A DNA stretch of 32,000 nucleotides from the NCBI GenBank assembly GCA_048882505.1, contig JBHLRO010000020.1, positions 1 through 32,000 of the forward strand, read 5' to 3'. A program made the position numbers and the translations under genes. Of the stretch, positions 1,386 through 19,669 are shown one piece after another. Position 1 is the first letter of the stretch, and the number at the start of each line of letters is the position of its first letter. The notes under the pieces are model-generated. The model did not search any database, had not been told where the DNA came from, and was given only the letters and a program-made list of their open reading frames with translations. Source of the stretch: Candidatus Thorarchaeota archaeon (lineage in GTDB: Archaea > Asgardarchaeota > Heimdallarchaeia > Hodarchaeales > Hodarchaeaceae).

Positions 1386-4259
1386 TCATCGCCCGTATTT
1401 TAGGTAAATTGCTGATCCAATAATTAACAGAACTACTAGGACAGCTAAAACTCCCAATGGGCCTGGATCAGGGGTAATAGGCCCAGGCTCAGTAGTACTG
1501 TTGGAATCCTTTTCATTGTCGATTTCAAAGGTGCGATCAGAGGTATCTTCTTCTTCCAGGGCATAGGAGTAGGCAGTGACCTTGATAAGATATTGCATTC
1601 CGTCCTTAACGGTTGTAGTATCCCAATCCAGCTGATTCGCGGAAATATCTCCACTCAAGTGATACCAACGTTCACCGTCGTTATCTGAATATTCAACAGC
1701 ATAAACAATTCTATATTCGTATGAATCTCGTGCATGATGCCACTGAATCGTTTGAGTACCATCTAAGGGGTCTTTCACTATATCAGGATGAGTAACTTTA
1801 GGTGGGTAAAGGAGGTGAACTGGATTTTCATTGTTTGGAAAACTAACTGGAGTCCCATCAGAATTTTGAGTAACCCGAGTTGTTTTTTCAATCTGATAGG
1901 AAATATCTACGATTCCATCCGAATTGGAATCTGGGGTTTGCCAATCATCCCAATAATTGTGAGAAAACATATTGTTTATGCCATCATCGTAAGCCTGAGG
2001 CATGGTACCGGGATTATTTGTAATGAAATCATTGTGAGTTATATTATTATGACTGGAGGAAGAGCTTAGAGAAATGCCATGACCTTGATTTTTATAAAGG
2101 ATATTGTTTAGAATAAGGTTACCATTTGATGAAAGAAAGGTCATGCCATTTCCAGTATTATTCATTATTACAGAGAATGATATTCTTCCACCTATAACAT
2201 TATTAAGAAGGATTCCAGTCTTTCCTCCATTTAAGATGCAATTAGTAATTACAAAACGAACTGTGGAATTTACTACTTCGATCAACGTATCAGAGCCATT
2301 CCCCATTATTATGTAGTTTTCAATAATATAAGGATTCGTAGCTGTTCCATTTCCAGGCCATCCTTCCGCCTTTGCTTGCGCATGAAAACCTGTGTCTCCA
2401 TTAATACTGATAGAAGAGTGGTCAAGGAAAGTTATTCTTCTTTTTACTCCCCAAATTGGTGAGTTTAAATTATATCCGATTTCCTGGTAGAGAGATTGGA
2501 GAAAAGCAAGTGGTTTCGCAGTAGAAGAGCTATTGAGGGTTTCAAGATTTGTGTAGGGTAGAGTATTTTTATCTACCACGTCAATTTCGCCACTATACAA
2601 AGAAAGAAGTGCGCTTGCTGCATTTGAGATTAGTTTTATACTAATATTGTTGAGGGAAGGCGCAACCGTTCCCATTAACGTGTGATTAAATCCATTCCAC
2701 TTTTCCAGCTTCCATAATTCATTTTGCGTATCGAGGGATTTGATTTTATAGGGCCCGTATCCCACGGGTCCGTGGGTCGTATTTCCTTTGTTGAAGACAT
2801 GGGTATCCCATGTTGTATAAGCAGGACCGCCCATTGCAGGATCTAAAAGGTGTGCAGGGATAATTGGTAAGGTTAAGAGCACTTCCTTAAAGAACGGCTC
2901 GAATTTAGTGAGTTCGATTTTCACTGCTGTTTCATTAAGGACGGTGACACTATTGTTGTTTATGATATCGGCATAGGAATAGTAGAGGGAATCAATGGCC
3001 GGTTTAAGAATAGCCTGGTAAGTGAATCTTATATCACTGGCATTTAAGGGCTCATTATCATGCCATTTCAGACCAGAATGAAGATTAATAAAATATGTGA
3101 GACCATCAGCGGAGACATTCCATCTATTTGCCAAATAGGGCCTAACAAACCAATTCATGAAACTAGAATCATTCGAGGGAGTATCAATAGCGAACAATCC
3201 TCCTGGAAAGACGCTTTGGGTTACATAATTATCGTAGTAGCTAGAAATTCTCAGGATAGGATTAAAATCACCTAAATTTTGGGGAACGGAAATCGTAACT
3301 TTTGATTGGTTCCCTATTGTCCAATTTTCATAATTCCAAATAAGAAATGGATTAAACCCTTCAAAATACTTATCCAAACCCCACAGTTCGAGATTTTGGT
3401 GTAGAATAGACTTGGGAACATATTCTACAAACCATTCTTGAAAATCATGGAAAGCTTGGACACGTTTGGTTTTGTTAGGATTTTTTTCCATTGTATCTAT
3501 GAGGTTATCTGCTACGGACGAATTTAGGCCGATATAATCCCAAGAACCAGCAAGTACCGGCCTAGTAGGTGACACGTTCCACCCAATATAAACTACATCA
3601 AATCCTCCCTCATCATAGCTCTCCCCATTGGTCATGTTTTGGTTAAAAATTCGATTCGCTAGATCAATCCAACTGGTAACTATATTAGTAACATTAATTC
3701 CTATCTTCCCCCACTCTACTGAAGTTCTGTTTGCCCATTGGATACGAAGGGGATTGTTATTAGGGACAAGGGCTGTGAGAGCGAAATATGGTTTGCTTTC
3801 GTCAACAAACGTAGTAGTAGGATTATCTGTAGCATTAAAACGATATCCAAATACTGATTCCATCAAATCTAACGCTTTAGTCGTGTTAAATGAACGCGCG
3901 GATAAACTGGAATTGAAATACATCCCGTTTTGAGGTATAACAGGCGTAGCTAGCGATTGAGCTGAACCACCTAATATTGTATCAATAATTTGTTGTCTTG
4001 GTATCGCGTAATCCATTGCCTGACGAATCAAAGTCCGTTCTGTCTCGTTTAAATTATTTGAAAACCAAAGAGGGTTGTTGAAATTGGCTTGCAAATCTTG
4101 GATCCATGTTTCCGTCCTGGGATGAGCTTTTTGTGATGTTTTGGTGATTCCTCCTCGTAAGGGATAGATTAAGAATAAAAAGCTGATGACAATAAAAATG
4201 AGTAGTAAGGATTCGAGTCGTGTTAACATCGTTTCATTAAATTTTCTCCTTCTTTCCAC
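1386..4259 (-). CDS. Family-5 (DppA/OppA-like) solute-binding protein, circularly permuted, fused to NosD/right-handed beta-helix, Ig/FnIII-like domain and C-terminal membrane anchor
   Basis: N-terminal signal/TM. SBP motifs IRQAMDYAIPRQQII, FDVVYIGW, PYLANRWNVSADGLTYFINLHSGLKWHDNEPLNASDIRFT, GYGPYKI, LYSGEIDV. Then GWPGNGTATNPYIIEN and beta-helix repeats (GILLNN, NNTGNG, YKNQGHGISL), VEYSDNDGERW...LDWDTTTVKDGMQYLIKVTA, and a C-terminal TM plus KYGR. Many N-x-S/T sequons. Confidence 0.88.
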   Translation of the reverse strand: MERRRKFNETMLTRLESLLLIFIVISFLFLIYPLRGGITKTSQKAHPRTETWIQDLQANFNNPLWFSNNLNETERTLIRQAMDYAIPRQQIIDTILGGSAQSLATPVIPQNGMYFNSSLSARSFNTTKALDLMESVFGYRFNATDNPTTTFVDESKPYFALTALVPNNNPLRIQWANRTSVEWGKIGINVTNIVTSWIDLANRIFNQNMTNGESYDEGGFDVVYIGWNVSPTRPVLAGSWDYIGLNSSVADNLIDTMEKNPNKTKRVQAFHDFQEWFVEYVPKSILHQNLELWGLDKYFEGFNPFLIWNYENWTIGNQSKVTISVPQNLGDFNPILRISSYYDNYVTQSVFPGGLFAIDTPSNDSSFMNWFVRPYLANRWNVSADGLTYFINLHSGLKWHDNEPLNASDIRFTYQAILKPAIDSLYYSYADIINNNSVTVLNETAVKIELTKFEPFFKEVLLTLPIIPAHLLDPAMGGPAYTTWDTHVFNKGNTTHGPVGYGPYKIKSLDTQNELWKLEKWNGFNHTLMGTVAPSLNNISIKLISNAASALLSLYSGEIDVVDKNTLPYTNLETLNSSSTAKPLAFLQSLYQEIGYNLNSPIWGVKRRITFLDHSSISINGDTGFHAQAKAEGWPGNGTATNPYIIENYIIMGNGSDTLIEVVNSTVRFVITNCILNGGKTGILLNNVIGGRISFSVIMNNTGNGMTFLSSNGNLILNNILYKNQGHGISLSSSSSHNNITHNDFITNNPGTMPQAYDDGINNMFSHNYWDDWQTPDSNSDGIVDISYQIEKTTRVTQNSDGTPVSFPNNENPVHLLYPPKVTHPDIVKDPLDGTQTIQWHHARDSYEYRIVYAVEYSDNDGERWYHLSGDISANQLDWDTTTVKDGMQYLIKVTAYSYALEEEDTSDRTFEIDNEKDSNSTTEPGPITPDPGPLGVLAVLVVLLIIGSAIYLKYGR

Positions 4260-7636: not shown

Positions 7637-9004
7637 TCATTTCTTCTCTGATCTAATCCCTGCTGCCCGCGAGTTTTTTCTCTTTCTACGGAATGCAAGG
7701 ATGAGGAGCATCACACAGAACACAGGGCCTGTCACAAATGATGAGGCTCCGGTGGTTGGGGGCATCCAATCTTCATCAAGTTCTAGTTTGAATAACCATG
7801 CATCTACTCCCCCTGCTCCTTTAGACACTGTCCTTCCAGCTAGAACAAAGTTACCATCAGAACTTTGAATCATATCCCAAGCGAACTCGTCATCGCTTTC
7901 ATAACCATGTGTTTGGTTCCAGAGAACGTTGCCATCATTGTCGATTTTTAGGAGCCAATTATCACCATTGCCTGGTCCATATGACTTTGTATGAGCCATG
8001 AGAAGATAGCCATCATCGACTTCAAGTATAAGATTCGCCCAGTCATTGAAATTTCCGCTAAAGTATTTATCCCATTCTTTTGTTCCATTTTCAAATATTT
8101 TGATGAGCCACAGTTCATTATCGTACCCCGAAACAAACGAATTTCCCCATAGAAAAAAACCTCCATCGGAGGTTTCGATAAGATCATAGCCAAGATCCAT
8201 ATCTGATGTACCGTACGTTTGATTCCATAATTCAGTTCCATTAGCATCAGTTCTATAGATAATTAGATCATGACCATATGGATCAGAGGGTGAATTACCC
8301 GTCCGTCCGATTGCAAGGTATCCCCCAGAGGAGACTTCTATCACAGAGAATGTTCTATCAAAACGGATGCCCCCATAAGTGGCATTCCATTCCTCTGTTC
8401 CCGTACTATCCAATTTTAGTAACCAGGCATCAGGGGAAGCATCTGGGGATGGGATATACCGACCTGTCAAAATATATCCTCCATCAGAAGTCTGGATTCC
8501 CCGATCAAAGTCATCACTACCTGAGCCGCCAAAGGTTTTGTTCCATTCGGGGTCTCCATTGTTATCCGTTTTAACTATCCAAAAATCATTAGCCCCATTT
8601 CCAAACGATTGAGTAGCCCCGGCTAAGAGATATCCTGTATCTGGTGTTTGGAAAATTGCGGAGAAGGAATCTGATGAAACACCACCGTACGTCTTGTTGA
8701 ACTCTATGATTCCATTCGTGTCCGTCTTGATTAACCAGCCATCAGAATCTCCCGCACCATATGAGGTTGTATGTCCTACGATCGCAAACCCTCCATCAGA
8801 TGATTGGATTATACCACGCGCTGCATCATCGCCAGTCCCTCCATAGAAAAATTCCCATAGAGTAACCATCGGGCCTTGACTGGATAACCTGTAATTCTGA
8901 TCCCTCTCTTGCGGGGATCCGGTCACGATAGTATATGAAATTGATAGAAGTAGACAGAAGACCAAGATTTCAGCTCTTCTAAGGCTTTTCCTTTTACTAG
9001 TCAT
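7637..9004 (-). CDS. Secreted, membrane-anchored 7-bladed beta-propeller surface protein
   Basis: Signal peptide; seven ~52-aa repeats of type D-x-IQTSDGGYxLxGxTxSxGxGxxDxWLxKxDxxGxxxWNxTYGG; C-terminal TM plus RRKRK; SD-like AGGAGG upstream (9012-9017 on minus). Confidence 0.88.
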   Translation of the reverse strand: MTSKRKSLRRAEILVFCLLLSISYTIVTGSPQERDQNYRLSSQGPMVTLWEFFYGGTGDDAARGIIQSSDGGFAIVGHTTSYGAGDSDGWLIKTDTNGIIEFNKTYGGVSSDSFSAIFQTPDTGYLLAGATQSFGNGANDFWIVKTDNNGDPEWNKTFGGSGSDDFDRGIQTSDGGYILTGRYIPSPDASPDAWLLKLDSTGTEEWNATYGGIRFDRTFSVIEVSSGGYLAIGRTGNSPSDPYGHDLIIYRTDANGTELWNQTYGTSDMDLGYDLIETSDGGFFLWGNSFVSGYDNELWLIKIFENGTKEWDKYFSGNFNDWANLILEVDDGYLLMAHTKSYGPGNGDNWLLKIDNDGNVLWNQTHGYESDDEFAWDMIQSSDGNFVLAGRTVSKGAGGVDAWLFKLELDEDWMPPTTGASSFVTGPVFCVMLLILAFRRKRKNSRAAGIRSEKK

Positions 9005-9131
9005 GTTATAACCTCCTGCTAGTGGCTTTTCATCTTTTATTTCGAAAATCTACTTTTTTAATACTGAAATTTTCCGGTACGGCTTTTTATTATTCAATCG
9101 AGCATTCTGGGATCAATTATTGGGGAATAGA

Positions 9132-9716
9132 TCACCTTTCAGGTTTATTTCGAGGTTTCAAATCCCAAACCTTAATCGATTCATAGATAAACGCAACTGT
9201 TCCAATTATTAATGCGAATAAAAATAAATTTGCTCCTAGGCTCATAACGAAGTCATCTCCCAAGATAAGAAATGAAACTAGGTAAATTAGAAATCCAATC
9301 AGAAAAATAACCAGGTAAACTGAGAAACGGGGAATCATCATATTCCCGACTGTCACATAGAAACTTAGGAGCCCTGATTTGACTTTTCCATTCACAACAT
9401 ATTTCTCACCTGTTTCATCCTTTGAAACTCGACCAGTCTCGATCAGCTTTTTTATTTGATAATACGCGAGTCCAGGGGAAGAAAAGTTAAGAGCTTGATG
9501 AATTTCACGTATACTTGCAGGGCCTTTTTCCAAAAGGTACCAGTATACCTGTAATGTTTTTCCTTGGAGGAGCTCATCAGGAAAAGATGAATTAGTGGTT
9601 GTGGTTATTTTTTCAACCTTTTTAATTGTCATACTTCTTGTTTCTTCTGTTGAAATTTCTATGATCCCCTGTTCCTCTTTTATCTTCTCTTTTTGGTGCT
9701 CTTTTGATGATTTCAT
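9132..9716 (-). CDS. Winged HTH transcription regulator with two C-terminal TM helices
   Basis: LQGKTLQVYWYLLEKGPASIREIHQALNFSSPGLAYYQIKKLIETGRVSKD is an ArsR/TrmB-like wHTH; followed by PRFSVYLVIFLIGFLIYLVSFLIL and LFLFALIIGTVAFIYE TM segments; ATGA overlap with the upstream SBP stop. Confidence 0.85.
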   Translation of the reverse strand: MKSSKEHQKEKIKEEQGIIEISTEETRSMTIKKVEKITTTTNSSFPDELLQGKTLQVYWYLLEKGPASIREIHQALNFSSPGLAYYQIKKLIETGRVSKDETGEKYVVNGKVKSGLLSFYVTVGNMMIPRFSVYLVIFLIGFLIYLVSFLILGDDFVMSLGANLFLFALIIGTVAFIYESIKVWDLKPRNKPER

Positions 9717-11899
9717 TGGTCTTTGTCCCCTTTCCTTATATATTTTGTGACTTTTTGGTTGCGTACGATCGTGAAACTGATGCTCAATATCATAACCAAG
9801 GAGATTCCCAATACAACCGGAAAAAAGTTAAAGGATAGTTCCTTAACAAAGTCTCCTAACCGTAATAAATTTTCTCCTCCTTGTAATTGCACTTCAATAA
9901 ATCTGAGGGATGAGTTCAGATTTACTGTTTCTAGCTCAATCCAAGTACCTTCAATATTGTCATATTTATACAAAACTAATGTTTCCCCCTTCCTATTACC
10001 GATCTCCTCAGGATCATAATAGGAACGAAAAGAATAAGTACGCTCTTGATCAGCAACTTTAATCTGATAAAACTTGCCTTGGCCAGCGTATTGAGGAAGA
10101 AACGTTTCTAACTTACGATCCATTTGAACAGAGTTGACCATAAGTGGATTATTATCTTCATTCGTTATTATTGCATCAATATAGGGAAAATAGAGCGATT
10201 CAGTTTGCATCAAAACATTAGAAACTGTCTTTGATGGAAATACCCGAAAATCAGAAATCTTAAAGTTAATTGTAGCATTATTCTGTGGATGGGTATAATC
10301 AAACTGAAAACGCAGATTTGAATCGAACGTGTAGTATGAGGCTGAATCACTAGATTGGTAAAACGTGAAAATCTCTTTCTGAATGAGAAGAAAAGGACAT
10401 TCTTCTTGAGCTAGTTGTAAAACCTTTTGATAATAAAATTCCCGTTCTTGATGCACTGGGGTGGTTTGCCCCTCTATGATTAGAGTATCCATTAGAGGAT
10501 TTGAATATCCCCCATAATTTCTTTCCCCTTCAGTATGCATCATTTGCTGTGTTATGTAAGGATCAGTTAGGACATACGGCATGATTCCGATATCAAACTC
10601 ACCAGTTTCCAACATTTCCGTATAAGAAGGATCCTCAACGATTTCGCATTCAATCCCCACTTGTTCAAGGGATTCCTGGATAAAGGATGCATGAAATCCA
10701 GCCGCAGGTACTCTTACCAATTTCAACGAGAAACGAGTACCATCAGTTCCTCTGACATACCCCTCTTGATCTAATAGACTATTGGCCCTTTTTAAATCGA
10801 AGGGGTACCCTTCGACAGTTGAGTCATAACCAAAAGCCCCCTCTGGTAATAAGGAACGCAGAGGTTTGCGATTATCCTCTAAAAACATTTGTGTTAATCT
10901 TACATTGTTTACTGCGTAGTTGATTGCTTTACGGACATTTTTATTTGCCAATTCAGGACGATCAAAGTTGAAAACGCCAACATAGGCATATGGTGAATCA
11001 AGAAGTTCTATTTTCTTCCAAGAGGGATCATTGACAGTATCAATATACGATCCAAAGCCTACAAAGTCGAGTTCGTGCTGATTGATGGCTTCTATGTACT
11101 CCGCGCTAAAGGCTTCATAGAAATAATAATGAATTTCTTTAAAGGGAGCAAGGCCCTCATGATACTGGTTAAACCGATAGAATTGCAAAAAGGATGAAGT
11201 AGACTCATCTAAGTTAACGTAATAGGGGCCTGTTCCTATTGGAGAAACAAAGTCTGTTCCATTGAAACTATTAAGGGATGCAATTTTGAGATATGGAAGT
11301 AAGTTTTGAAATGGCGCAAACGGTTCGGAAAAATGAACTTTGACCTCAAACTCACTCACTATCTCAACAGAAGGATTTACCCATGATGTATTTAAAGAGT
11401 TTAAAAACGCATTATTGAGGTCCAAAAAGCCTCTTTCCATATTTAATGCTACCGCCGAGGCATTGAATCTAGAACCATCATGAAAAAAGATATCATCTCG
11501 AAGATCAAACGTCCAATGTTTACTGTCGTTCGTTACGAAGAATTGAGTGGCGAGAGTGGGTAAAATCTCGGCTTTATCCTCATCATATTCTACAAGTGAT
11601 TCATAAATTAACGACATTGGCATAAATTTGTAATAATTGAGAGGATCAAGGTTAAGTACAGAGCCCTCCAGTAGGATATCTTCACCCATACGTAGGATTT
11701 CAGGCGGCTCAGATTGATCTATTTTTGAAGGAATTGAATGGAGATTTAGCTGGTTTTGATTTGTTAAAACCGGAGATCTGGACGAAATCTCTCCTGAAAT
11801 TGTCTCGTGAATTACCACAAGCAATATGACAAGGATTATGAGCTGCCTTCTGTCCATTACTTTGATCCTGCCTTGGTTCCTTTTTTCAAATTCTCCCAC
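9713..11899 (-). CDS. Family-5 solute-binding protein (canonical order) with extra C-terminal domain and C-terminal TM anchor
   Basis: LNLDP...YESLVEY...PTLA...WTFDLRDDIFFHDGSRFNASAV, IGTGPY, NKNVRKAINYAVN, ANSLLDQEGY, LEQVGIEC, REFYYQKVLQLAQEECPFL; then a ~150-aa beta-rich domain (LYKYDNIEGTWIEL), a TM and a basic tail. Confidence 0.9.
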   Translation of the reverse strand: MGEFEKRNQGRIKVMDRRQLIILVILLVVIHETISGEISSRSPVLTNQNQLNLHSIPSKIDQSEPPEILRMGEDILLEGSVLNLDPLNYYKFMPMSLIYESLVEYDEDKAEILPTLATQFFVTNDSKHWTFDLRDDIFFHDGSRFNASAVALNMERGFLDLNNAFLNSLNTSWVNPSVEIVSEFEVKVHFSEPFAPFQNLLPYLKIASLNSFNGTDFVSPIGTGPYYVNLDESTSSFLQFYRFNQYHEGLAPFKEIHYYFYEAFSAEYIEAINQHELDFVGFGSYIDTVNDPSWKKIELLDSPYAYVGVFNFDRPELANKNVRKAINYAVNNVRLTQMFLEDNRKPLRSLLPEGAFGYDSTVEGYPFDLKRANSLLDQEGYVRGTDGTRFSLKLVRVPAAGFHASFIQESLEQVGIECEIVEDPSYTEMLETGEFDIGIMPYVLTDPYITQQMMHTEGERNYGGYSNPLMDTLIIEGQTTPVHQEREFYYQKVLQLAQEECPFLLIQKEIFTFYQSSDSASYYTFDSNLRFQFDYTHPQNNATINFKISDFRVFPSKTVSNVLMQTESLYFPYIDAIITNEDNNPLMVNSVQMDRKLETFLPQYAGQGKFYQIKVADQERTYSFRSYYDPEEIGNRKGETLVLYKYDNIEGTWIELETVNLNSSLRFIEVQLQGGENLLRLGDFVKELSFNFFPVVLGISLVMILSISFTIVRNQKVTKYIRKGDKDQ

Positions 11900-13202
11900 T
11901 AGTTTGCTTTATCTTTTCGGATGGTCGTAGACGTCGAAGACGAATTATTAGAACTAATGCACCCACAACGAAGAAGAAAATCTCTCCAATTTGAAAGCCA
12001 GAAGCAGAAACAGAAGTTTCCATGGCTTTGATCAGCCAAAAATCGTCATTTCCTGCACCTTTTGATGCTGTTCCACCTACTACCATAAAGGTACCATCAG
12101 TATTCAGAAGAATGGCCAATCCCGTATCATCACTTGAGCCTCCTAGTGCTTTATGCCATAATTCATTCCCTGAGGCATTTGTTTTAACTACCCATGCGTC
12201 AGATTGTCCTGCTCCAAAAGAATTGGTTTCTCCAGTCAAAAGAAAATCCCCATTCGCGGTTTCAACTAAAGCTTTATCGCAGCAAGAATTATCCCAGCCA
12301 AAGCCACCGTAAGTTTTAATCCAGTCAACCGTGCCATTTTCAAGCACTTTAACTAAAATAAAGTCATTACTTCCCGCAGCACCATGTAAATCGGATCCTC
12401 CCGATAACAGATACGCCCCATTAGAAGTTTGAATGATATTGTTGAAAAAATCATGACCTGCTGTACCAAACGGATTCTTCCATTCCAGGTGTCCGGTACT
12501 ATTAGTTTTATGGATTCCGTGACCGCCACTAAGGGCAAAGCCGCCATCTGTAGTTTGAATTACAGACAGTCCCCGTCCAGCTCCTAACGTCCGATTCCAC
12601 GCTACTTGTCCCGTGCTATTCACTTTCAATAACCAGATATTCTGACCACCCGTGCCATAAGACCACGTTGCACCGGTCAGAATAAAGTCTCCATCTGAGG
12701 TAGAGACCGCTGACCGAAAAATTTCATCCGCAGGCCCTCCATATGAGTTATTCCATAGATGATTGCCCTGGGGGTCAACTCGGACTATCCAAAAATCTTT
12801 CCCCCCTTTACCAAAGGATTCAGTATGGCCAAGCATGGCAAATCCATGATCTGCGGTCTGTAAGACGACAAAACCATGATCGTTGTCTGACCCACCATAG
12901 GTGTTATTCCACAATACAGCGCCATTCGCATCCGTTTTTATTAACCAAAAATCTTGCCCCCCTTCTCCAAATGAGTTTGTCGTGCCGAAAACAGCAAACC
13001 CACCATCCGAGGTATGAATAACGGTTGAACCCCAATCATCTGCACTGCCCCCATAGGTTTTCTCCCACACAACTCCTAAAGTTTCTGCTTCTACCCTTGT
13101 TATTGTGTTTGTAATTGCAACTACTCCAGCGGTTCCAGTCAAAATACTAATCACGAGGCCACTGACGAGTAATTGTGTTTTCAAATTAAATTTCTCGTTC
13201 AT
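11886..13202 (-). CDS. Secreted, membrane-anchored 7-bladed beta-propeller surface protein (paralog of 7637-9004)
   Basis: Signal peptide, seven repeats (WEKTYGGSADD...DFWLIKTDANG), and C-terminal ASGFQIGEIFFFVVGALVLIIRLRR resembling a PGF-type CTERM anchor; 14-nt overlap with the SBP start. Confidence 0.88.
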   Translation of the reverse strand: MNEKFNLKTQLLVSGLVISILTGTAGVVAITNTITRVEAETLGVVWEKTYGGSADDWGSTVIHTSDGGFAVFGTTNSFGEGGQDFWLIKTDANGAVLWNNTYGGSDNDHGFVVLQTADHGFAMLGHTESFGKGGKDFWIVRVDPQGNHLWNNSYGGPADEIFRSAVSTSDGDFILTGATWSYGTGGQNIWLLKVNSTGQVAWNRTLGAGRGLSVIQTTDGGFALSGGHGIHKTNSTGHLEWKNPFGTAGHDFFNNIIQTSNGAYLLSGGSDLHGAAGSNDFILVKVLENGTVDWIKTYGGFGWDNSCCDKALVETANGDFLLTGETNSFGAGQSDAWVVKTNASGNELWHKALGGSSDDTGLAILLNTDGTFMVVGGTASKGAGNDDFWLIKAMETSVSASGFQIGEIFFFVVGALVLIIRLRRLRPSEKIKQTSGRI

Positions 13203-13288: not shown

Positions 13289-13303
13289 TATTTAAACTTT
13301 TCC
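13289..13303 (-). promoter_or_regulatory. Candidate archaeal BRE+TATA promoter of the 13202-9132 operon
   Basis: Minus strand reads GGAAAAG-TTTAAATA (purine-rich BRE-like element then TATA-like box), about 90 bp upstream of ATG 13202. Confidence 0.55.
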
Positions 13304-13316
13304 ACGGTTGTTTAAA

Positions 13317-13373
13317 GTACTAACGTTAGTACATGGTTATACATTCATCTTTGTTCTGTACTAACGTTAGTAC
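13317..13373. promoter_or_regulatory. Two identical perfect 16-bp palindromes GTACTAACGTTAGTAC (putative tandem operators)
   Basis: Copies at 13317-13332 and 13358-13373, 41 bp apart start to start, just upstream of the candidate BRE/TATA. Confidence 0.8.
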
Positions 13374-19186: not shown

Positions 19187-19669
19187 TCAAGAATGTTTGG
19201 ATTTGGAATGTTGATCTAATCCAATTTTGGTTTGAAATTTTTTATTGCACAGCTGACATTCATAGGTTTTCGCTTGTATTAACTTTTGATCATGTTTTGA
19301 TTTATTATGCTGCATTAACGCAAGATCATTTTTGAAGGATCTGTTGCATGATTTGCAGATAAATTTGGTCTGGATTTTCAGATTTTTGTGTTTAGCAGCC
19401 TGATGCTGCTGGAGAGCTTGCTGGTTCGAGAATTTTCTCTTACTATGATCACAAGCATTGAGCTTTTTCGGAGCTGCTTCATGAACGTCCTTGCGATGCT
19501 GATTTAATGCTTGTTGAGAACCAAATTCTCCTTGACAGGACTCACATCTATGTATTTTCTGCTCAGTTTTTGCATCTACAACTAAAGTTTGGATATTGTC
19601 CGTGTTGATTACGGGATTGAGTCCACCTAGAAAAAGTACGAAGATTGGATAGTTAAATTTGAATAGCAA
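19187..19669 (-). CDS. Multi-C2H2 zinc-finger protein (3 canonical + 1 degenerate fingers)
   Basis: CESC-x3-F-x5-L-x2-H-x4-H; CDHS (degenerate); CKSC...F...L..H...KH; CQLC...F...L..H...KH. Start codon uncertain (TTG 19669). Confidence 0.85.
   Translation of the reverse strand: MLFKFNYPIFVLFLGGLNPVINTDNIQTLVVDAKTEQKIHRCESCQGEFGSQQALNQHRKDVHEAAPKKLNACDHSKRKFSNQQALQQHQAAKHKNLKIQTKFICKSCNRSFKNDLALMQHNKSKHDQKLIQAKTYECQLCNKKFQTKIGLDQHSKSKHS

Follow-up and report, generated by a model that had tools for sequence, protein, structure and literature searches.

A candidate two-protein transmembrane transcription regulator in a surface-protein operon of an Asgard archaeon

Organization of the locus

The window, i.e., the whole stretch of DNA analysed here, comprises positions 1-32000 of contig JBHLRO010000020.1 (assembly GCA_048882505.1; C20:1-32000 in our contig numbering) of Candidatus Thorarchaeota archaeon, a member of the Hodarchaeaceae. 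According to the open reading frame (ORF) calls, four minus-strand genes span positions 13202 to 7637. They encode a beta-propeller, an orphan family-5 solute-binding protein (SBP5), a winged helix-turn-helix protein with two transmembrane helices (wHTH-2TM) and a second beta-propeller. On balance, this locus seems best read as a self-contained two-protein "co-component" transmembrane transcription regulator, which autoregulates a surface-protein operon. Through the pairing of the solute-binding protein (SBP) with the regulator, what happens at the cell surface is probably coupled directly to the switching on of surface-protein genes. The four genes are:

11886-13202, minus strand: P0001, 438-aa beta-propeller surface protein, SBBP/PQQ-like, first gene of the operon
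9713-11899, minus strand: P0002, 728-aa orphan family-5 SBP
9132-9716, minus strand: P0003, 194-aa wHTH-2TM protein, proposed membrane-tethered transcription regulator
7637-9004, minus strand: P0004, 455-aa second beta-propeller, paralogue of P0001

The initial annotation of this region described three translationally coupled genes with overlaps of 14 nt and 4 nt. The 4-nt overlap of P0002 and P0003 (ATGA) is read directly, and a GGGGA Shine-Dalgarno-like run precedes the ATG. The 14-nt overlap of P0001 and P0002 holds only with a GTG start of P0002. An ATG start at 11857 (MDRRQLIILVILLVV...), preceded by AGGCAGGA, is equally plausible; the protein would then begin with a typical signal sequence, and 28 nt would separate the gene from P0001. 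Under either start, the two genes are tightly packed. P0004 starts 127 nt downstream of P0003. The anchored propeller, the anchored SBP, the wHTH protein with two transmembrane (TM) helices and the second propeller paralogue of the earlier description were all confirmed by ORF calls, profiles and models. The same is true of the missing transporter, as the window contains no ABC permease or ATPase genes.

The genome from which the window originates (labelled G000) has a size of 4.3 Mb in 83 contigs, with a completeness of 94.6%. Its closest protein relatives are deposited under Hodarchaeales or other Asgard archaea names. The window DNA matched only DNA sequencing runs of two metagenome studies, one of them on sediment; no RNA run was listed.

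Structure of the wHTH-2TM protein

P0003 combines a putative DNA-binding domain and TM segments in one polypeptide, as transmembrane transcription regulators do by definition (PMC10269533). In Pfam, its matches to TrmB, HTH_20, HTH_27 and LexA are weak and all below the curated cut-offs, and no match to Trans_reg_C (OmpR/PhoB-type) was found. The AlphaFold2 (AF2) model, built with 44 relatives, has a mean predicted local distance difference test (pLDDT) score of 80. In this model, the disordered, K/E-rich residues 1-42 are followed by a winged helix at residues 47-110 (DNA 9387-9578). Residues 111-129, between the wing and the first TM helix, form one short helix and a beta-hairpin (120-129). 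The two TM helices, residues 130-152 and 160-184 (DNA 9165-9329), are modelled very confidently as a hairpin with a loop of about seven residues. The C-terminus is predicted to be cytoplasmic, and the hairpin takes the place of a single TM helix with a periplasmic sensor domain.

Foldseek retrieves generic wHTH folds for P0003 (ArsR/SmtB, LexA, IdeR, Z-alpha; E 0.02-0.1), and these structural neighbours are mostly DNA- or RNA-binding winged helices. Two motifs, IPRF and YES.K.W.LKP, are conserved in the family. The weakest relative of P0003 in its own genome is a paralogue at C20:66547-67017, outside the window; a run of N (C20:64469-64732) adjoins it.

Distribution and genomic linkage of the family

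A profile search of the phylum, in which 201 genomes of 59 genera were sampled, revealed the wHTH-2TM family in 120 genomes and 36 genera. Within the genus, it is found in 20 of the 21 other genomes, with up to 12 matches per genome. One hundred wHTH-2TM loci were fetched (L-numbered), their ORFs were called, and the neighbours were labelled with profiles of the window proteins and with Pfam. In about 30 loci, the gene directly upstream of the wHTH-2TM gene encodes an SBP5 protein of 700-780 aa with a signal sequence and a C-terminal TM helix. The gap between the two genes is mostly -4 or -1 nt, and a propeller gene is located downstream in about 12 of these loci. The SBP5/wHTH-2TM arrangement is repeated in public contigs.

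The initial annotation proposed the SBP as the extracellular receptor of the regulator. In this form, the view is not supported, as at least five types of ectodomain (SBP5, SBP1, SBBP propeller, NosD beta-helix and DUF3160) replace one another in the partner position. The other upstream partners comprise a DUF3160 protein, an SBP_bac_1 (SBP1) protein with a C-terminal TM helix (4-nt overlap) and an N-terminally anchored protein of about 240 aa. In another taxonomic family, SBBP propellers and NosD beta-helix proteins occupy the upstream position, again with 4-nt overlaps.

A same-strand upstream gene within 200 nt is present for 59 family members. In 57 of these, it encodes a protein with an N- and/or C-terminal TM helix, compared with 184 of 1407 genome-wide in the own genome, a comparison that serves as a description and not as a test, because related genomes are not independent. 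The conservation of the neighbourhood that the earlier reading called for was thus found, with the homologues strongly linked to anchored surface proteins.

DUF3160 proteins of about 735-750 aa, with an N-terminal anchor only, are conserved as upstream neighbours in one wHTH-2TM subfamily (L062:3623-5827, L091:4375-6624 and L128:3754-5955). This linkage gives a first genomic context for that domain of unknown function. A variant of 229-261 aa has two extra TM helices before the wHTH domain, making four in total, and has no secreted partner directly upstream (L117:5690-6463, L119:2728-3492, L121:6017-6706, L122:5756-6526; P0036).

The partner-type anchor

The partners that are anchored at the C-terminus have their tail in common. 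In P0002, this element is:

9716-9850, minus strand: partner-type C-terminal anchor of P0002, residues 684-728, consisting of SFNFFP, a TM helix, Asn714 and a basic tail

These partner tails start with the consensus [ST][FY]x[FLY][LVFI]P; about 19 hydrophobic residues come next, then an Asn and a run of basic residues, and the chain often ends in acidic or aromatic residues. The tail is carried by partners of unrelated folds, namely SBP5, SBP1, propeller and beta-helix proteins. All 23 SBP partners that were compared have the Asn that corresponds to Asn714, at an overall identity of only 27-41%. A hidden Markov model (HMM) of the last 46 residues of the partners, with P0002 left out of the build, matches 38 partner proteins at E < 1e-3. 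In the own genome, for which 4071 ORFs were called, it recognizes only P0002 (E 1e-7; next best 0.017).

Most SBP5 proteins of this organism, including those linked to transporters, have a C-terminal TM helix with a PGF-CTERM-like tail, e.g. TPGFE...RSRRKH. A C-terminal TM helix by itself is therefore ordinary, as transporter-linked SBPs also carry one, of this other type. Judging from the tail alignments, the conserved partner element is the anchor and not the ectodomain, since the SBP is one of several ectodomain types that replace each other.

Across 23 pairs, the pairwise identities of the SBPs correlate with those of the regulators (r = 0.84; none of 2000 Mantel permutations reaches this value). 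At the level of protein identities, this correlation shows that the SBP/regulator module duplicates as a unit, and it is no proof of contact. A complex prediction, as proposed in the initial annotation for the TM helices of the two proteins, was run with SBP residues 545-728 and P0003 residues 44-194. It gave a score of 0.48, with 0.00 for the best of three controls; the mark is reached by 58 of 80 solved complexes and by 2 of 110 mismatched pairs, and scores of 0.60 or less at this mark belong to only 7 of the 80 solved complexes and to both passing mismatches. The runs agree in at least 74% of the contacts, and the pLDDT of the partner is at least 73. The prediction gives weak support for a contact between the SBP anchor region and P0003.

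The idea that the SBP signals via its C-terminal TM helix thus stands in part. A coupling is backed indirectly by the anchor motif, the fusions described below, the co-diversification and the weak pass in complex prediction, but the TM helix as such is no special feature. We consider it fairly probable that the P0002 anchor and the P0003 hairpin are functionally coupled.

Natural fusions of ectodomain and regulator

In some genomes, the ectodomain and the regulator are found in a single chain. P0075 (955 aa; L113:9052-11919, minus strand), from another family of the phylum, consists of a signal anchor, a NosD/beta-helix ectodomain, a TM helix, a K-rich linker, a wHTH domain and two TM helices. 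P0076 (953 aa), found in a different assembly, is built in the same way, with 76% identity in the wHTH part. A third fusion, P0025 (beta-helix, TM helix, K-rich linker, wHTH, two TM helices), is truncated at its 5' end, which brings the number of separate data sets with such a fusion to three. They came from the genome searches and from a query with the P0075 region; a search of homologues longer than P0003 yielded no fused forms. The predicted layout of the fusions fixes the topology, with the wHTH domain on the cytoplasmic side. The existence of such natural fusions argues that the ectodomain protein and the regulator would work as one unit.

A paralogue with the reverse order is present in the own genome at C52:1950-3611 (L003:1453-3114), with orthologues in L107 and L108. 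This 553-aa protein has an N-terminal wHTH-2TM part, a third TM helix, an ectodomain without Pfam match and a final TM helix. Just upstream of the P0075 gene, L113:12345-13814 (minus strand) encodes an anchored Kelch propeller of 489 aa (Kelch_KLHDC2_KLHL20_DRC7, E 5e-50), another eukaryote-like surface fold at such a locus.

Putative operators and promoter

The region upstream of P0001 contains two copies of a palindrome and a block that, based on general knowledge of archaeal promoters, we take to be a transcription factor B recognition element (BRE) with a TATA box:

13358-13373, no strand assigned: distal operator box, perfect 16-bp palindrome GTACTAACGTTAGTAC
13317-13332, no strand assigned: proximal operator box, GTACTAACGTTAGTAC again, 41 bp from the distal box, start to start
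13289-13305, minus strand: core promoter of the operon, BRE/TATA-like, GTGGAAAAG TTTAAATA; the first ATG follows after ~85 nt

Both putative boxes are located upstream of GTGGAAAAGTTTAAATA, with 11 nt between the proximal one and the BRE-like run. The BRE/TATA-like block is the most conserved part of a promoter alignment of 11 loci (consensus GATGGAAAACCTTAAATAG). In the entire genome, GTACTAACGTTAGTAC occurs in two exact copies, both at this promoter. The only near-copy elsewhere in the genome, with one mismatch at C1:310750, was taken as chance; it lies 2 nt before the ATG of a gene starting with MPEGPEVE..., presumably Fpg/Nei-like by its N-terminus.

An identical box or a one-base variant is found at equal distance in L031, L032, L033 and L034, with regulators that are 49-54% identical. 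Other paralogue groups carry other palindromes at this place, namely (T)TCTAACGTTAGA(A), CTGTACAAAnnTTTGTACAG and GTACGAAATTTCGTAC, and in most loci a second box lies upstream of the first. The operator class varies with the recognition helix of the regulator: AYYQIKK occurs with GTACTAAYGTTAGTAC, VAYQINK with TTCTAACGTTAGAA and TVTYQLSK with TGTACAAAnnTTTGTACA. A box of class III reads as follows:

Class III operator box: sequence TGTACAAACTTTTGTACA

The promoter profile detects further copies that were not used in its build, all in fetched loci and none elsewhere in the own genome. All but one of these copies, which is situated at a contig end, face a downstream gene, and the genes that were checked encode TM-anchored proteins. 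In L040, a copy precedes the downstream propeller gene. This copy and the operator pair before the first propeller gene support the control of propeller genes that had been suggested for this locus. It is likely, as judged from these promoter comparisons, that the boxes are the sites by which P0003 regulates the operon it belongs to.

When the related loci were searched strictly for pairs of perfect 14-bp palindromes, none turned up; a looser scan and the alignment gave single boxes, perfect or nearly so, at a fixed position. The genus-level promoter HMM found nothing in loci of other taxonomic families. In another taxonomic family, GTAC-N8-GAAC and GTAC(A/G)AAAA abut a TATA-like box before SBP5 and propeller partner genes, and GTTC/GAAC-type boxes precede beta-helix partner genes. 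The GTAC-type boxes are weaker evidence because they were read by eye from the palindrome scan. No consistent perfect palindrome was found in the subfamilies paired with DUF3160 or ~240-aa proteins.

A different palindrome, TAGAACA-N3-TGTTCTA, was observed upstream of the partner gene in two loci, at a distance from the first gene of 105 nt in L068 and 59 nt in L106, and L109 has a shorter AGAACA-N-TGTTCT box 52 nt before its first gene. As the loci belong to two different taxonomic families, these AGAACA-type boxes may be the operator of other wHTH-2TM subfamilies. A sigma-70 promoter and terminator scan was discarded, its output being at shuffle level and the method unsuited to an archaeon.

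The orphan solute-binding protein

P0002 consists of a signal/anchor, the SBP5 fold, an extra domain of about 170 aa and the C-terminal TM anchor. Residues 112-443 match SBP_bac_5 (PF00496) with an E-value of 1.2e-49 and 169.8 bits (cut-off 32.4). In a sequence comparison, residues ~80-520 align with the nearly full-length solved chains of NikA, DppA and HbpA. By this alignment, the SBP5 fold of P0002 is complete, with two lobes.

The complete SBP_bac_5 fold is shared with the SBPs of Opp/Dpp/Nik importers, but the genomic context of these importers is missing. P0002 has no adjoining BPD_transp_1 permease or ATPase genes, and it differs further in its extra domain and its partner-type anchor. 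In the own genome, BPD_transp_1 genes are present on contigs C1, C5, C6, C10, C15 and C25, mostly beside other SBP5 genes. The check for dpp/opp permeases elsewhere, which had been recommended, thus gave four to five sets, all on other contigs. A permease-like gene lies inside the fetched flanks of only one of 80 related loci.

SBP-dependent receptors are known from LuxP/LuxQ, TorT/TorS, ChvE/VirA, DppA/Tap and NikA/Tar. P0002 would resemble them in that the SBP is the ligand-binding input of a membrane transducer, instead of or besides serving transport. Their SBPs are soluble and dock on the periplasmic domain of a kinase or a chemoreceptor, whereas P0002 is itself anchored in the membrane by a dedicated tail and the proposed transducer is the transcription factor P0003.

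Another SBP5-related protein is encoded in the window at 1386-4259 (minus strand). In this 957-aa surface protein, the SBP_bac_5 match is circularly permuted (profile positions 215-353 before 2-209), and NosD/beta-helix repeats and a C-terminal TM helix come after it. The permuted order is also present in the own-genome genes C6:42668-44269 and C5:139815-141428.

Proposed mechanism and alternative readings

In the proposed mechanism, P0003 would be inserted in the membrane as an N-in/C-in hairpin, with its winged helix in the cytoplasm. Probably as a dimer, it would bind the two GTACTAACGTTAGTAC boxes that directly precede the BRE/TATA-like box, and from there it would most likely activate the propeller gene, the SBP gene, its own gene and possibly the second propeller gene. 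The dedicated anchor of the co-translated P0002 would set the activity of P0003 by touching it in the membrane or beside it, and P0002 would supply the extracellular ligand-binding domain. Because P0003 has no ectodomain, any coupling would have to run through the membrane or the cytoplasmic tails. Gene order, protein architectures, the operator pair with its conservation, the partner-specific anchor and the fusion proteins are seen in the sequences and their comparison. The binding of P0003 to the boxes, activation rather than repression, the touching of anchor and hairpin, and the SBP ligand as the signal are the steps that we infer. For the last of these, that the signal is the ligand bound by the SBP, the chances are close to even, if slightly below.

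A broader proposal is more tentative and somewhat doubtful. One-step signalling in Asgard archaea might be modular, with a universal anchor "plug" on any ectodomain and the wHTH-2TM hairpin as its reader. If true, the hairpin would read the state of the plug inside the membrane and activate a paralogue-specific promoter. A genome would then run as many as a dozen insulated routes, each leading from a ligand at the surface to the expression of surface-protein genes, without kinases or second messengers.

Several observations weigh against the co-component regulator as described. One wHTH-2TM subfamily, which includes C21:2167-2667 of the own genome and is single-copy where seen, has no secreted partner. 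The DUF3160 and ~240-aa partners lack a C-terminal anchor, so the anchor mechanism is not universal. In the host, a C-terminal TM anchor is the normal fixing of surface proteins, transporter-linked SBPs included, and P0002 might still serve one of the four to five Opp/Dpp-type permease sets. In the 127-nt gap before P0004, no operator-type promoter was detected, so this gene is either co-transcribed or has its own promoter; either may hold. The mirror-tree correlation and the covariation of operator and helix are confounded by shared descent, since adjacent genes duplicate together. Finally, the complex score is weak, and its margin would be trivial for two sets of TM helices if the controls were soluble proteins.

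One alternative is homeostasis or transertion, in which P0003 senses the amount of partner anchor or holds the operon at the membrane, with the ectodomain as cargo and not as sensor. The partner ectodomains are indeed extremely diverse, adhesin/lectin-like beta-helices and propellers rather than classical sensors; the anchor is conserved and the ectodomain is not, and the regulated genes all encode surface proteins. Transertion has been proposed for VtrA/VtrB (PMC9977878). Nevertheless, this alternative is unlikely, as two independent ligand-binding classes (SBP5 and SBP1) have been recruited without a transporter, which fits sensing better than cargo, and P0002 keeps a complete SBP fold.

It is rather improbable that an ordinary regulator merely lies next to a transporter SBP, with P0002 feeding a distant Opp/Dpp permease and no physical link to the wHTH-2TM protein. 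Permease sets of the matching type exist in the genome, orphan SBPs that share permeases are known among ABC importers, and a C-terminal TM helix is generic for surface proteins of the host. The partner anchor, however, is found on non-SBP partners too and is absent from transporter-linked SBPs. The natural fusions, the near absence of permease-like genes from the related loci (1/80) and the conserved 4-nt overlaps do not fit this explanation either.

That P0003 is not a transcription factor, its winged helix docking surface proteins to something cytoplasmic while another factor binds the palindromes, is very improbable: winged helices do also serve as protein-protein modules and the Pfam matches stay below the curated cut-offs, but the operators vary along with the recognition helix of the paralogue encoded at the same locus, the loci have no other DNA-binding gene in common, the structural neighbours mostly bind DNA or RNA, and ArnR offers a precedent (PMC6396743).

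Relation to known regulators

The proposed co-component regulator can be compared with one archaeal and several bacterial systems. ArnR and ArnR1 of Sulfolobus acidocaldarius are described as membrane-bound activators of the archaellum operon (PMC6396743). According to the same text, ArnR has an N-terminal HTH and two C-terminal TM helices, with HAMP-like and sensing domains between them, and binds two inverted repeats directly upstream of BRE/TATA (PMC6396743). By this published architecture, P0003 is alike in its N-terminal HTH and its two C-terminal TM helices, and its predicted targets, like those of ArnR, belong to the cell surface (PMC6396743). The geometry of the boxes is also similar, with two palindromes directly upstream of a BRE/TATA-like block, to which P0003 would bind. 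Unlike ArnR, P0003 has no HAMP-like or sensing domains; its HTH and its TM helices are only about 20 residues apart. A dedicated partner protein is not mentioned in the available part of PMC6396743, whereas P0003 has a candidate partner in P0002. Among the characterised examples tabulated in a 2023 census of membrane-tethered regulators (PMC10269533), ArnR is the sole archaeal entry that was noted, and the census does not contain the word Asgard.

Among bacteria, ToxR/ToxS, TcpP/TcpH, VtrA/VtrC and CadC/LysP are co-component transmembrane regulators (PMC9214523, PMC10269533). As proposed here for P0003, a tethered DNA-binding protein depends in the ToxR/ToxS-type systems on a second membrane protein, without phosphorelay, and in co-component cassettes the genes of the two proteins are neighbours. 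ToxR-type regulators have an OmpR/PhoB-type wHTH domain, a single TM helix and a periplasmic domain of their own, by which they contact the partner protein on the outer side of the membrane. P0003 differs from ToxR, CadC and TcpP in its weak TrmB/ArsR/MarR-like matches, its TM hairpin and its lack of an ectodomain. The parallel to ToxR and CadC drawn in the initial annotation is therefore valid for the logic of the system, but not for the DNA-binding fold or for the membrane part, P0003 being a hairpin without ectodomain.

Full-text literature searches yielded no description of the wHTH-2TM family. The features by which it differs from the known regulators are the TrmB/ArsR-like wHTH domain in place of an OmpR-type one, the TM hairpin without ectodomain, the anchor motif of the partner, the interchangeable ectodomains and the fusions. 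Asgard archaea are the closest known relatives of eukaryotes and have an elaborate cell surface. The family is phylum-wide and multi-copy, with interchangeable partners, a recognisable coupling motif and predicted operators before the regulated genes. In these genomes, orphan SBPs and a good part of the genes labelled "surface protein" could receive a new annotation as the sensor half of a regulator, after which each locus would yield an assignment of regulator, operator and regulon.

Propellers and other proteins of the window

P0001 has an N-terminal signal/anchor and a C-terminal ASGF motif, TM helix and RLRRLR tail, PGF-CTERM-like in appearance. P0004 ends in ASSF, a TM helix and RRKRK. 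Pfam gave no match for either protein at E <= 0.1, and the propeller fold is therefore shown by modelling. The AF2 model of P0001 (pLDDT 84) contains about 28 strands, which by count corresponds to about seven blades. In Foldseek, the CylK propeller is the best match (E 2e-22), followed by YxaL, BamB, YncE and the PLL/PHL lectins. The NCBIfam SBBP-propeller model matches P0001 at 4.6e-9; Pfam SBBP is matched by the relatives in L115 and L118 and not by P0001 or P0004.

The downstream propellers, P0001 and P0004 included, carry T-rich linkers and (P/S)GF-type tails. In P0001 and P0004, ASGF and ASSF stand in place of PGF; in related downstream propellers, the tail is clearly of the (S/T)PGFE type. 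In the own genome, two genes of the exosortase/archaeosortase family score above the curated cut-off (C18:53502-53786 and C13:96674-96952; L111, L112). As a large number of the surface proteins in these genomes have a C-terminus composed of (S/T)PGFE, a TM helix and RK, archaeosortase-type processing of Asgard surface proteins seems likely. A search of the own genome with PF09721 (Exosortase_EpsH) gave nothing, a result that says little because the control also missed Haloferax volcanii, which the broader archaeosortase model TIGR04178 finds.

Elsewhere in the window, a gene at 19187-19669 (minus strand) encodes a protein of 160 aa, unusual in an archaeon, in which several zinc fingers of the C2H2 type are recognized (zf-C2H2_jaz, zf-C2H2_6 and other Pfam models).

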